DNA of 40,443 nt, from IMG/VR virus record IMGVR_UViG_3300028841_000327; one strand, 5' to 3'. How positions within the stretch are numbered: the first letter of the stretch is position 1; each line of letters opens with the position of its first letter. Under the pieces are notes generated by a model, which did no database searches, was not told the DNA's origin, and worked only from the letters and a program-made list of their open reading frames with translations. The position numbers and the translations under genes were made by a program. The stretch comes from a virus. This document shows positions 2,344-40,360 of this stretch, piece by piece.

Positions 2344-3072
2344 CTATGCGTCTGCCAGTTCGCCATCGAACCGTGCCCCGAGCTTGCGAAGGATGTCGCG
2401 AGCGAGGATCGTGCGGTGGCATCGGTTGTGGTCCATGCAGTAGCAGGTCAGCACGCTGCGCTTGCGCGCGAGCAGCTCGTCCCACACCGAACGGTTCGCC
2501 AGGTAGCTCGAGCGCATCTCGTCGAGGTACCCGAGCTGGTACGCCTTCCAGTCCTCGTCGGTGAGCTCACCGCCCTGCTTGCGCTTCTCGAGGAACGGAC
2601 CGAGCAAGTTCCACGACGGCGCGAACACGTCGACGCCGCTCTTGCGGCTGACGTTGTAGACGTCGGGATCGCGACTGCTGATGCGCGCCGTCAGGACCAG
2701 CGGCCGCTCGAACGTCAGCACCTGGCCGAGCTTCCCCACGGAGCGCGCGCGCTCGACGGTGTTGTTCGTGCCGCTGCTGTAGCCGTCCCAGATGGCGTGC
2801 ACGATGTCGGAGTCGAGCACGATGGTCGCGTTGCGCTTGTAGCCAGCCCCCCTGTCGAGGACGCCGTCCCCCTTGGGGTACCAGTTCGCGGGGTGCTCCT
2901 TGAACTCGAGCCCTCGTCGCTTCGCCGCCCGGACCGCCAGCGTGTCGATGCCTGGGGCAGCGCCGCTCACCACGACGTCGCCAACCTCGAGCGAAGCCAC
3001 CAGCTGCTCTACCAGTCGCGCGCCTTCCTTGGTCGGCCATCGGCTGCCGACGACGCCGACCCGACGGCTCAT
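2344..3072 (-). CDS. SLOG-superfamily (YspA/DUF2493-like) domain fused to DUF488-like domain (242 aa)
   Basis: N-term VGVVGSR...VVSGAAPGIDTLA...AGYKRNATIV...AIWDGYSSGT; C-term FAPSW...Y..Y..EM...LTCYC....CHR; start coupled (ATGA) to upstream HTH gene. Confidence 0.7.
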   Translation of the reverse strand: MSRRVGVVGSRWPTKEGARLVEQLVASLEVGDVVVSGAAPGIDTLAVRAAKRRGLEFKEHPANWYPKGDGVLDRGAGYKRNATIVLDSDIVHAIWDGYSSGTNNTVERARSVGKLGQVLTFERPLVLTARISSRDPDVYNVSRKSGVDVFAPSWNLLGPFLEKRKQGGELTDEDWKAYQLGYLDEMRSSYLANRSVWDELLARKRSVLTCYCMDHNRCHRTILARDILRKLGARFDGELADA

Positions 3073-3362
3073 CCTCGAGCCCTCGTCTCCACGGTTGCTC
3101 GAGCCCGCCGCTCCTTCGCGGTGGACCATGAGGTCGCCGGAATCGTTCCGTGCGACCAGGTCTCGATGTTGTCGCGGTGCGCGCTCGAGGGGCGCCTCTG
3201 ACCAGAGGCCCAGTAGTGCACCGCCACGCGCGTGACGGGCAGCTGGTCGGTGCCGAGCGCATCGGCGACGTCCTGCGCGGAGAGTCCCTCCTCGGCCATG
3301 CGCTGCGCGAGCGCGCGACTGCCGTCGGTGTGGACCCGCTTCTTGATCTTGGTCTTGGCCAT
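3069..3362 (-). CDS. Cro/XRE-like HTH DNA-binding protein (97 aa)
   Basis: GLSAQDVADALG...VTRVAVHYWASGQRRPS; TGATG coupling. Confidence 0.7.
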   Translation of the reverse strand: MAKTKIKKRVHTDGSRALAQRMAEEGLSAQDVADALGTDQLPVTRVAVHYWASGQRRPSSAHRDNIETWSHGTIPATSWSTAKERRARATVETRARG

Positions 3363-36873: not shown

Positions 36874-37032
36874 TCACTCGATCGAATTGAACGCTTCGCG
36901 CAACTCGCGCCGCGCCTCGTGCCGCTCGCGCCGCCGCTGCGCCGCGCCGTGCCAAGCCAGGCACGGATCCTGATGACGCAGCCGAACCGAACGATCGCGC
37001 CGACGGTGGCGCGGCTTCTCACTGTGGAACAT
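36874..37032 (-). CDS. Small arginine-rich protein (52 aa), candidate RNA-binding factor
   Basis: MFHSEKPRHRRRDRSVRLRHQDPCLAWHGAAQRRRERHEARRELREAFNSIE; preceded by CCGCTGAAAGG SD; below ORF-track cutoff. Confidence 0.55.
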   Translation of the reverse strand: MFHSEKPRHRRRDRSVRLRHQDPCLAWHGAAQRRRERHEARRELREAFNSIE

Positions 37033-38422: not shown

Positions 38423-39265
38423 CTACTTGCGACGCAGCCAGCGCTGGCCCGCGCCGAACGAATCGTCGCGCGCCTTGCCTTCCAAGTTGGCAGGCCGGTT
38501 CGGGGCGAGAACCACCCCGCCGCGACGTTGCACCATGTCCGCACCCGGACGCAGCTTGCCGAACTGCTCGCCATGTTCGTTCGACCACGCGAGGTTCGCG
38601 GCATTCGAGTCCAGCGCCGCTTGCGCAACGTTGTGACGCACCGACTGATACATGATCTCGACATCGCGGAGCGATCCGCCCCGTTCCATCCGAAGCCGCG
38701 CCCGAAGCGCGGTGTCGGGGTCGTGTTCCGCCATGAATTTGAACATGGCGTCGAGACTCACCCCGACCGCTTCGCGCTCCGGCTTCGGCTCCTCGCCGAT
38801 CGGGAGCATGGTCGTGTGATAGACCGGCCGCGTGAGAACGCTTCCGACGGATGCACACGTCTGACCGACGAGAGCCCCGGGCCTGTAGGCCGACGCGCTA
38901 CCGCGCCGACAGACGCCCAGTTGCTGAACGGACACCGCGTAGGCGAGCCGTTCGAGCGGTGTCGCGCCGTGGCCGAGGAGACGGAGCCCGCAACGCGAGC
39001 CGCCCCGCCGACACCCGACGCGGACCGTGGTCCGCACGTAGACTTGCCGCATGACGCCGCCCGGTTTCACCTCGCGATCGGTCGCTTCCGCGACGACCGG
39101 GGTCACCGTGGCCACGACCGCGACCGGGACAGGCGGAGGTTTGACCTCGACCTTCGGCGCCTTGGGCGCCTTGCGCTTGACCGGTTCGACCGGTTCGGGA
39201 GCAGCCGCCACGAGGCTAGGCCTCAGAGCCGCGGACCCCTGCACAATCCTGCGCATTGCACGCAT
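38423..39265 (-). CDS. Hypothetical protein (280 aa), first gene of the minus-strand unit
   Basis: CCGCGAAAGGAAACC-ATG start at 39265; Pro/Val/Lys-rich N-terminus. Confidence 0.55.
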   Translation of the reverse strand: MRAMRRIVQGSAALRPSLVAAAPEPVEPVKRKAPKAPKVEVKPPPVPVAVVATVTPVVAEATDREVKPGGVMRQVYVRTTVRVGCRRGGSRCGLRLLGHGATPLERLAYAVSVQQLGVCRRGSASAYRPGALVGQTCASVGSVLTRPVYHTTMLPIGEEPKPEREAVGVSLDAMFKFMAEHDPDTALRARLRMERGGSLRDVEIMYQSVRHNVAQAALDSNAANLAWSNEHGEQFGKLRPGADMVQRRGGVVLAPNRPANLEGKARDDSFGAGQRWLRRK

Positions 39266-40085
39266 GGTTTCCTTTCGCGGGCCCACCTTGGGCCTCGCAC
39301 CAAAACCCCGGTACTGCGCTTGCAGTCCAGGGCTTTGGCACGAGGGCGAATCTTGCGACTCGCCCCCGCACCAATCGAGGCTCACAACCTCGACAGGCCG
39401 GGGCACGTTACCGTGCAGACATGGGCCTTTGCTTTCGCGTTACCGCCCCCGTAGGGTTCACATACCAGCGACCCGCGACGCTTGCGCATCTAGCAGGCTC
39501 GCCGCTGTGATTTTGCGGCACCCGGGGCTCACAACCCCTTTCCAATCGTCAGGGCACGTCACCGTGCAACATAGACGCTTTCGCGACCGCCTCTTACGAG
39601 CGATTGCCTTGCAGCAACCCTTTGCGGTACCCGGCCTGTTCGACCGTTCCCGGACTCCCGCTAGGCCAGCCGGGGCTCGCAACCCTGACTTCCTAGACGG
39701 ACCGTGCCTGTAGCGCGCCGACCTTTGGCGTTTCCATGCTGCTAACACAAGCGCTCGTTTCCGAGGGGCGCGGGTGAAGCATGGCCCGGAACGATTCCGG
39801 GTGAAGCGTTGCACACCATATGCAACCGGTCGACACGACGTGACGTATGTAGCCTGTACGTAGGCCAGTCGCTATCCGCGTTGTTCGCGTTGTGAGAGGC
39901 CGCGGGGTAATCCCGTGGCATCGCGCCGCTTGCTTCGCTTGCGCACCGTAGAACCGGGCCCCTGTCACGGGGGGCCGAGTCTTCTAGGATGGAACCAAAC
40001 CACCCTAGATGTGCCTGTATTGCCGCCGCATTACCCCTATGGCGGGGGGGAGACGCTTAGTCGGAAACCGACAGTCAACGTCTAC
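39266..40085 (-). ncRNA. Putative ~820-nt structured leader / large ncRNA ending in an A-B-C element
   Basis: Dense hairpins with GNRA (GCAA, GTAA, GTGA, GAAA) and UNCG (TACG) loops and G-U pairs on the minus strand; three repeated units; lower GC; six CTAG in 39490-40092, rare in coding DNA here. Confidence 0.6.
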
Positions 40086-40113
40086 CAACTAGCGTTCCAT
40101 CGGACCAAACCCT

Positions 40114-40208
40114 CAAAGCAGAGCTTCTAACTCTGCAATGCAAAGCCAAAGCAGAGCTTGACAAAGCTCTGCCATGACCAAAGCAGAGTTTCTTGCGAAA
40201 GCAGAGCT
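40114..40208. repeat. Array of (C)AAAGCAGAG boxes, operator- or iteron-like, in the divergent region
   Basis: Direct copies at 40114, 40147, 40179, 40198; inverted CTCTGC at 40131 and 40167; palindrome GCAGAGCTT-GACA-AAGCTCTGC (40151-40172). Confidence 0.75.
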
Positions 40209-40360
40209 ACTGGTCGGGCGGTTAGGTAGTATGCGCGTTCAGGCACACGCTAGCGGAACGCGAGGCGCGCGGCAAGTGTCGAATCGTTCGCGCTCGATCG
40301 TGCGAGTGTCGCGCGGCGCATCGCTCGCACGTGGCGCGCGTGGTCGGCTACCATGTTCGC

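Follow-up and report, generated by a model that had tools for sequence, protein, structure and literature searches.

We describe here a structured RNA module carried by the gene-free leader of an uncultured phage contig; as judged by sequence comparison, this module is a previously undescribed, strand-specific RNA, supported by covariation and held at a fixed genomic position. It consists of an arm with an AUGUY/YCY internal loop and a GNRA-capped hairpin, accompanied by a downstream hairpin of the UUGYGAG type. As it stands, the module is a solid new motif with a narrow distribution and a putative function. A first-pass annotation of the window (the whole stretch of 40,443 nt that was analysed) had claimed structured RNA domains that are repeated, with stems that co-vary around constant loops; this is supported by our comparison, and the module is found conserved in diverged relatives.

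The contig that hosts the leader is high-GC and phage-like (G+C of 65–72% in the window, where coding-like frames lie almost all on the minus strand), and the leader heads a long minus-strand early gene run (Table 1). A methylase-helicase, a C5 methylase, a ParB-like protein and a ComM-like protein are recognisable among the products of the window; comparison of the neighbouring proteins with Pfam and PHROG returned no family, and ARAGORN returned no tRNA or tmRNA. The 5' limit of the leader was placed from the point where homology to the clade E contig L045 (see below) stops, at about 40074. Between 39266 and 40098, no ORF has coding-like GC3. The 861-nt stretch 39250–40110 folds with an MFE z-score of −4.4 against shuffles, and the minus strand of the leader carries six GNRA hairpins whose stems measure 4 bp or more, against a shuffle mean of 0.6, the plus strand carrying none; their density reaches 7.2 per kb in the leader versus about 1.0 per kb elsewhere. 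Given this strand bias, the G.U pairs in co-varying stems, the fold z-score and the lack of a coding signal, we infer that the stretch 39266–40098 behaves as a minus-strand RNA, with predicted transcription and predicted transcript ends. At the 3' end of the leader, compensatory pairs are found at alignment columns 782/789 and 847/859, and the short hairpin abuts a GAAAGGA ribosome-binding site. The clade B leader has the same layout at its 3' end; neither clade B nor clade D has the U-run.

Table 1. Positions in the window of the leader, its structural parts and its flanking features.
Feature	Position	Strand	Details
First minus-strand gene	38423-39265	-	280 aa, no family; ATG at 39265-39263
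Gene-free structured leader RNA body	39266..40098	-	~830 nt, from the box array to the first-gene start codon; limits predicted
Leader 3' end	39280..39367	-	GCAA-loop hairpin (39367-39342), long stem with UUUU, short hairpin at the ribosome-binding site
Unit 3	39366..39447	-	Tandem duplicate of unit 2; alignment z = 13
Long local hairpin between units 2 and 3	39458..39510	-	UCACA...GCAA loop...UGUGA; RNAalifold consensus
Unit 2, ancestral core	39515..39603	-	Two small GNRA hairpins, AUGUU arm, UUGUGAG hairpin
Unit 2, Pf/Hb arm	39547..39577	-	Pf stem (CGUC/GACG), internal loop U-AUGUU / CCU, Hb (5 bp, GUGA loop)
Unit 1	39658..39700	-	UUGCGAG hairpin (39687-39671) enclosed by the outer stem CCG(U)CUAGG / CCUAGCGG
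CUCACAAC, candidate loop partner	39889..39896	-	Exact 8-nt complement of GUUGUGAG; invariant in the window, L043, L001 and L002
Phased array of CTCTGCTTTG boxes	40114-40208		Between the divergent gene and the leader
Divergent gene	starts near 40353	+	Far side of the gene-free stretch

Searching with the leader by blastn gave no match in the phage and plasmid collections, the leader was not found in IMG/VR and the first downstream protein has no relative in IMG/VR. Relatives were found via exact-protein look-ups of two flanking genes and of their 90% clusters, and they form five groups: clade A, with the window (identical to L040–L042), L043 (97% identical) and L001 and L002 (81–85% over the leader); clade B, with L008, L020 (the same as record L032), the L030 group and others; clade C, with L003; clade D, with L026–L028 and L046; and clade E, with L045. 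A gene-free stretch of about 1.0–1.3 kb is kept at the leader position in every clade. The first downstream genes show no homology between clades, so the module is tied to a position and not to one gene product. The leaders themselves are strongly diverged: by blastn, that of clade A has no similarity to those of clades B, C and D, and those of clades B and D share 68% over a 425-nt alignment. The control region of clade E is 90–93% identical to that of clade A up to about window position 40074; past it, L045 carries on its minus strand (750–1720) a leader of about 950 nt that is unrelated to window 39266–40074 and equally structured. Because L045 shares the control region and then continues into an unrelated leader, whole leader bodies seem, from the sequences, to be swapped between phages as exchangeable cassettes. 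The L045 leader holds one GUUCG-UUGUGAG-CGAGC hairpin and a CCCUGACGA..AUCACA remnant.

The starting point in the window is a set of three minus-strand hairpins, CGAGG-TTGTGAG-CCTCG (39392–39376), GGGG-TTGTGAG-CCCC (39538–39524) and GGG-TTGCGAG-CCC (39685–39673). All sequences and coordinates of the first-pass annotation are correct, those of the three hairpins included, and the string GGCGGT..CGCGAAAGC..ATGT..GCACG-GTRA-CGTGCCC does precede the two 3' hairpins in the window. The motif GTTGYGAGC occurs three times when both strands of the 40.4-kb window are counted (1.05 expected), always on one strand and within 310 nt. The annotation had spoken of three structural units; these are really two repeats and one similar hairpin. 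Units 2 and 3 are repeats of each other with a period of about 150 nt (z = 13 in global alignment; 0 of 300 shuffles), whereas unit 1 is like them only in its hairpin (z = 1.1 and 1.8 against units 2 and 3, respectively, not significant beyond the hairpin).

In unit 2, the small GNRA hairpins are CGCUC-GUAA-GAGGCG and CGC-GAAA-GCG; they are followed by the arm, which reads stem/AUGUU/GCACG-GUGA-CGUGC/CCU (39577–39547; covariance-model score of 47.3 bits), and then by the hairpin GGGG-UUGUGAG-CCCC. Unit 3 has the corresponding parts: GGCGGU.., an AGGCC/GGCCU stem, a C-AUGUCU / CCCC loop, GCACG-GUAA-CGUGC and CGAGG-UUGUGAG-CCUCG, with a covariance-model match of 52.4 bits at 39429–39394. Unit 1 has no AUGUY/GNRA arm and no covariance-model match. 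Its inner stem co-varies in relatives (GGG/CCC, GGGG/CCUC, CGG/CCG and, in L043, CAGGG/CCCUG), its outer stem co-varies among them too, and its loop varies C/U.

The architecture of units 2 and 3 is found once in clade B and once in clade D, and it is the comparison of these copies that defines the module. A stem (CGUC/GACG, AGGCC/GGCCU, ACGGUC/GACCGU or CCGGUC/GACCGG), called Pf, encloses an asymmetric internal loop with (Y)AUGUY on its 5' side and YCY on its 3' side, together with Hb, a 5-bp hairpin capped by GUGA, GUAA or GCAA on stems as different as GCACG/CGUGC, GCUCC/GGGGC and GCCGC/GCGGC. Over the Pf/Hb arm, 95% of the cells of our eight-row alignment are paired and 6 of the 11 pairs show compensatory changes; none of 500 shuffles reaches the observed covariation score, which collapses in slid controls, these statistics being thin as there are only five to six independent sequence types. 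The covariance model covers only the Pf/Hb arm; the linker that follows measures 12–38 nt, and whole units are unalignable across clades by MAFFT. With this model, the nine known copies score 46–56 bits, and everything else stays at or below 14 bits in 86 kb of sequence, including the whole window, L003 and L045. The scan of the whole window gives exactly two copies (47–52 bits) and nothing else above 14 bits; by the same measure, there are two copies in clade A, one in clades B and D, and none in clades C and E.

Around the arm, one or two GNRA-capped hairpins stand upstream in clades A and B, and a UUAG-capped hairpin in clade D; the UUGYGAG-type hairpin lies 12–38 nt downstream. This hairpin appears, in clades B and D, to belong to a three-way junction closed by GAGAGGC/GUCUCUC (B) or GGGAGGC/GUCUCCC (D). 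Scanning larger collections with a degenerate pattern gave nine matches in IMG/VR, all due to chance (eight identical coding stretches and one other, with non-complementary stems), four in the JGI metagenomes, of which only L020, a 93% relative of L008, is real, and four in the GTDB genomes, all due to chance. Across these three collections, the module is so far confined to one phage group. We also considered the conserved AUG of the internal loop as the start of a leader peptide and rejected it: it lacks an upstream ribosome-binding site, and 1-nt indels in the AUGUY loop put the copies into different frames.

The UUGYGAG loop can be read in more than one way. Its stems co-vary (GGGG/CCCC, CGAGG/CCUCG, CCCG/CGGG, GUUCG/CGAGC), and RNAfold prefers a U.G and a U-A pair with a GYG triloop. 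The aligned hairpin of clade D is CGCGCC-GCGA-GGCGCG, a canonical GNRA hairpin closed by a C-G pair, and GCGAG is invariant between clades B and D. With a plain GCGA tetraloop at the aligned position in clade D, the most economical reading of UUGYGAG is a bulged U followed by a U.G-closed GYGA tetraloop of the GNRA class, which fits every copy of clades A, B and E. One has to keep in mind that every copy in these three clades keeps both U residues on the 5' side of GYGA, and that neither the bulge nor the triloop explains this.

The units do not share the same history. Between the window and L001/L002, for which the identity of the leader is 81–85%, unit 2 is 97.8% identical, the unit 1 domain 72%, with changes that are compensated, and unit 3 only 33%. 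Unit 3 is rearranged in L001 and L002: a long insertion replaces the first small hairpin, the GNRA loop has grown to GAAAGGAA, and the UUGUGAG hairpin has been lost. The single copies of clades B and D, moreover, share their architecture with unit 2. Given these identities and the rearrangement of unit 3, unit 2 is the ancestral, strongly conserved functional copy; unit 3 is a clade-specific, recent tandem duplicate, partly dispensable and decaying in close relatives, and unit 1, whose loop is of the same type, is a hairpin of separate standing.

What could such a module do? Our preferred reading, to which we give a probability of about 0.45, is that of a cis-acting, compactly folded leader module in which GNRA tertiary contacts would lock a rigid platform for the early transcript. 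The leader would be a long, compact 5' RNA, transcribed from the minus strand ahead of the long early gene run; the core of the module, three or four hairpins (the capped hairpin or hairpins, the internal-loop/GNRA arm and the downstream UUGYGAG hairpin), would be held together by intramolecular tertiary contacts of its tetraloops, for which the conserved internal loop is the obvious candidate receptor. The module would thereby become a rigid domain, serving for recognition in cis or as a stabilising platform that a protein or the transcription machinery might bind, and additional copies would add redundancy or avidity and not make up a cooperative pair. No co-variation was seen between the loop type and the internal loop. 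Since the leaders of clades C (L003) and E (L045), about 1 kb long and at the same place, lack the module, the latter would be replaceable or not essential.

GNRA tetraloops and their receptors organise folded domains such as P4–P6 of group I introns and the GEMM-I c-di-GMP aptamer. The leader resembles these domains by its several short GNRA hairpins beside a conserved asymmetric internal loop, and by stems that co-vary around fixed loops. It differs from them in that AUGUY / YCY departs from the canonical 11-nt receptor (CCUAAG / UAUGG); docking is putative here, and the leader is not recognised by the Rfam models of group I introns and c-di-GMP riboswitches. Structured RNAs of large uncultured phages are almost unexplored, and this leader offers a workable entry to the role of long leaders in early transcription: the core of the module is small, well defined and supported by covariation, and nature provides copy-number variants with one copy, two copies, or two copies plus a decayed one. 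If this core binds a protein, a polymerase or a ligand, it would represent a new regulatory RNA family. A bolder version, which we hold to be a long shot, would make the AUGUY/YCY arm and the GYGA hairpin the core of a new class of phage riboregulators heading a 39-kb operon, by polymerase reprogramming or by sensing a host signal; the duplicated loops of clade A might in addition clamp CUCACAAC, thereby folding or multimerising the 0.8-kb RNA.

Another reading, unlikely in our eyes and yet worth keeping in mind, is that the hairpins are operators for a phage-encoded RNA-binding protein that would read the loop and the bulged U, with the copy number setting avidity. Protein operators, such as boxB for N, those of coat proteins or iron-responsive elements in tandem, typically combine a constant loop, stems that vary, a bulged nucleotide and a copy number that is not fixed (1–3 here); a hairpin with the loop described here recurs in the otherwise unrelated leader of clade E. 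A 52-aa Arg-rich protein (36874–37032, minus strand) is also encoded 2.3 kb downstream. Its 54%-identical homolog in L003 (763–879, minus strand), however, belongs to clade C, which has no module, and the loci of clades B and D are too short for its co-occurrence to be followed there; no partner protein was found, and clade D has a plain GCGA tetraloop instead of the loop. The first-pass annotation had proposed tandem aptamers or protein-binding domains: the structured, repeated domains are there, whereas the aptamer half of the proposal is weakened by the decay of the second copy in close relatives and by the single copy of the sister clades.

Antitermination RNAs of phage leaders, such as lambda nut (boxA/boxB) and HK022 put, offer a related comparison. 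As in these RNAs, small stem-loops with conserved unpaired nucleotides stand at the start of a long phage operon, and Hb resembles lambda boxB as a 5-bp stem with a GNRA loop. Unlike in lambda nut, no boxA-like element was recognised beside Hb, the only conserved 5' element being AUGUY, and no N-like partner is linked to the module. The terminator scan found 6 intrinsic terminators in the gene run for 8.3 expected; this is no excess, and so gives no support for a need of antitermination.

The first-pass annotation had also suggested that the UUGYGAG loops pair with the distant CUCACAAC, or with shorter complements nearby, in a pseudoknot, a kissing contact or a contact joining several RNAs, and we consider this improbable. 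The 8-nt complement is present as announced (CTCACAAC on the minus strand at 39896–39889); it is exact and invariant in clade A, and a loop complement of 8 nt within the leader is reached in only 15 of 2000 dinucleotide shuffles, a figure that is nominally unusual, although the match was found post hoc. In the thermodynamic ensemble, CUCACAAC is left unpaired at about 60%, and its pairing with the loop region of unit 2 accounts for about 30%. RNAalifold instead assigns the CUC of CUCACAAC to a putative, invariant long-range helix with the GAG of AAGAGGCGGUCGCG. Against the pairing stands the fact that CUCACAAC does not change while the unit 1 loop varies C/U: no column of the clade A alignment co-varies with this change in a complementary context, and it is thus left uncompensated. 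Co-variation of loop and partner in homologs, by whose lack the annotation had proposed to refute its own idea, is absent as far as the data reach. Three loops would, moreover, share one partner.

Outside clade A, the loop complements of clades B and E are only 6 nt long, which is the chance level; CYGCAAC, the candidate of clade B, is part of a local hairpin (CYGC-AACGCGA-GCGG). The UUGYGAG loop is altogether missing in clade D, and clades B, D and E have no equivalent of CUCACAAC. The CAACGCGA shared beside the candidate partners of clades A and B was considered as a sign of homology and set aside, its structural positions being different in the two clades. The two short complements are accounted for by local pairing, which compensatory changes support. 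TCACAGC forms the 5' side of a 53-nt local hairpin (39510–39458), in which UCACA/UGUGA of the window becomes UCACG/CGUGA in L001 and L002, a compensatory change from A-U to G-C at columns 596/640; TCGCAA belongs to the stem and the GCAA tetraloop of the local hairpin at 39367–39342, whose stem co-varies (columns 782/789). From the alignments at hand, a pairing of CUCACAAC with the loops may occur in clade A, without comparative support.

Could the RNA of about 0.8 kb instead be free-standing, as an ornate non-coding RNA like GOLLD or ROOL, possibly multimeric? This seems to us hardly probable. A structured, tetraloop-rich, phage-carried RNA of 0.6–0.8 kb is indeed what the leader has in common with GOLLD and ROOL (Rfam; PMC12286853), so that its size, GNRA hairpin density and phage context fit; the idea of an oligomer echoes their kissing-loop assemblies, and has a precedent in the homo-oligomers formed by GOLLD, ROOL and OLE (PMC12286853). 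The RNA could terminate ahead of the first gene, at the stem and U-run, and leader bodies appear to be swapped as cassettes between control regions that are otherwise 90% identical. The U-run, however, is not conserved, and the leader differs from GOLLD and ROOL in that no sequence or structure match links them, in that it stands directly before a gene with a ribosome-binding site, and in that only a narrow group of uncultured, high-GC phages is known to carry its module. Rfam 15, which includes GOLLD, ROOL, OLE, HEARO, raiA, group I and II introns, T-box and pRNA among the families covered, gave 0 matches for the whole window at gathering thresholds and only chance-level ones at E up to 10 for the window and the leaders of clades B and D.

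Least probable of all, and by our estimate very unlikely, is that units 2 and 3 are tandem ligand-sensing aptamers of a riboswitch controlling the stem and U-run before the first gene. The layout does suggest it, with tandem homologous folded domains upstream of a terminator-like stem, and unit 2 alone weakly matches the c-di-GMP-I-GGC riboswitch model (RF03167; 17.3 bits, E = 0.54). This score is far below the gathering score of 59 bits, and RF03167 has no match at E up to 10 in the leaders of clades B and D, whose modules thus lack the likeness. In tandem cooperative riboswitches, both copies should be conserved across relatives; here, unit 3 is rearranged, the second copy having decayed in L001/L002, and clades B and D have a single copy. 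The junction nucleotides also vary between clades, the downstream genes differ, and clades B and D have no U-run. The likeness itself spans 39549–39617 on the minus strand, where AAGGCAA..GNRA hairpin..CGCGAA resembles the 5' half of the model; as it is not repeated in clades B and D, we judged it to be due to chance. Finally, ToxI-like RNAs of type III toxin-antitoxin systems form several direct repeats of about 34–36 nt adjoining an endoribonuclease toxin gene, and the leader has instead two repeats with a period of about 150 nt and neighbours without a Pfam or PHROG family.

A few observations on the periphery of the leader are worth recording. A 25-nt segment (CCCCCCGCCAUAGGGG.., within 40000–40048 on the minus strand) forms a variable hairpin at the periphery, which L001 has lost by deletion but L002 and L043 retain. 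The divergent gene encodes a 426-aa protein (L001, 1561–2841, minus strand; in the window, from about 40353 on the plus strand) with a signal- or membrane-like N-terminus, whose central domain of about 200 aa has no Pfam match and hundreds of uncharacterised bacterial homologs, one of them in a Polyangiales MAG; a profile search with this protein reached only this widespread bacterial domain and no further leaders. The box repeats are clade-specific, with CTCTGCTTTG in clades A and E, GGCAGAC in clade B (L008, about 3230–3350, minus strand) and TGCGCAG in clade C (L003, about 2950–3120, minus strand), and each clade carries several direct and inverted copies of its own box, like clade-specific sets of operators or iterons.
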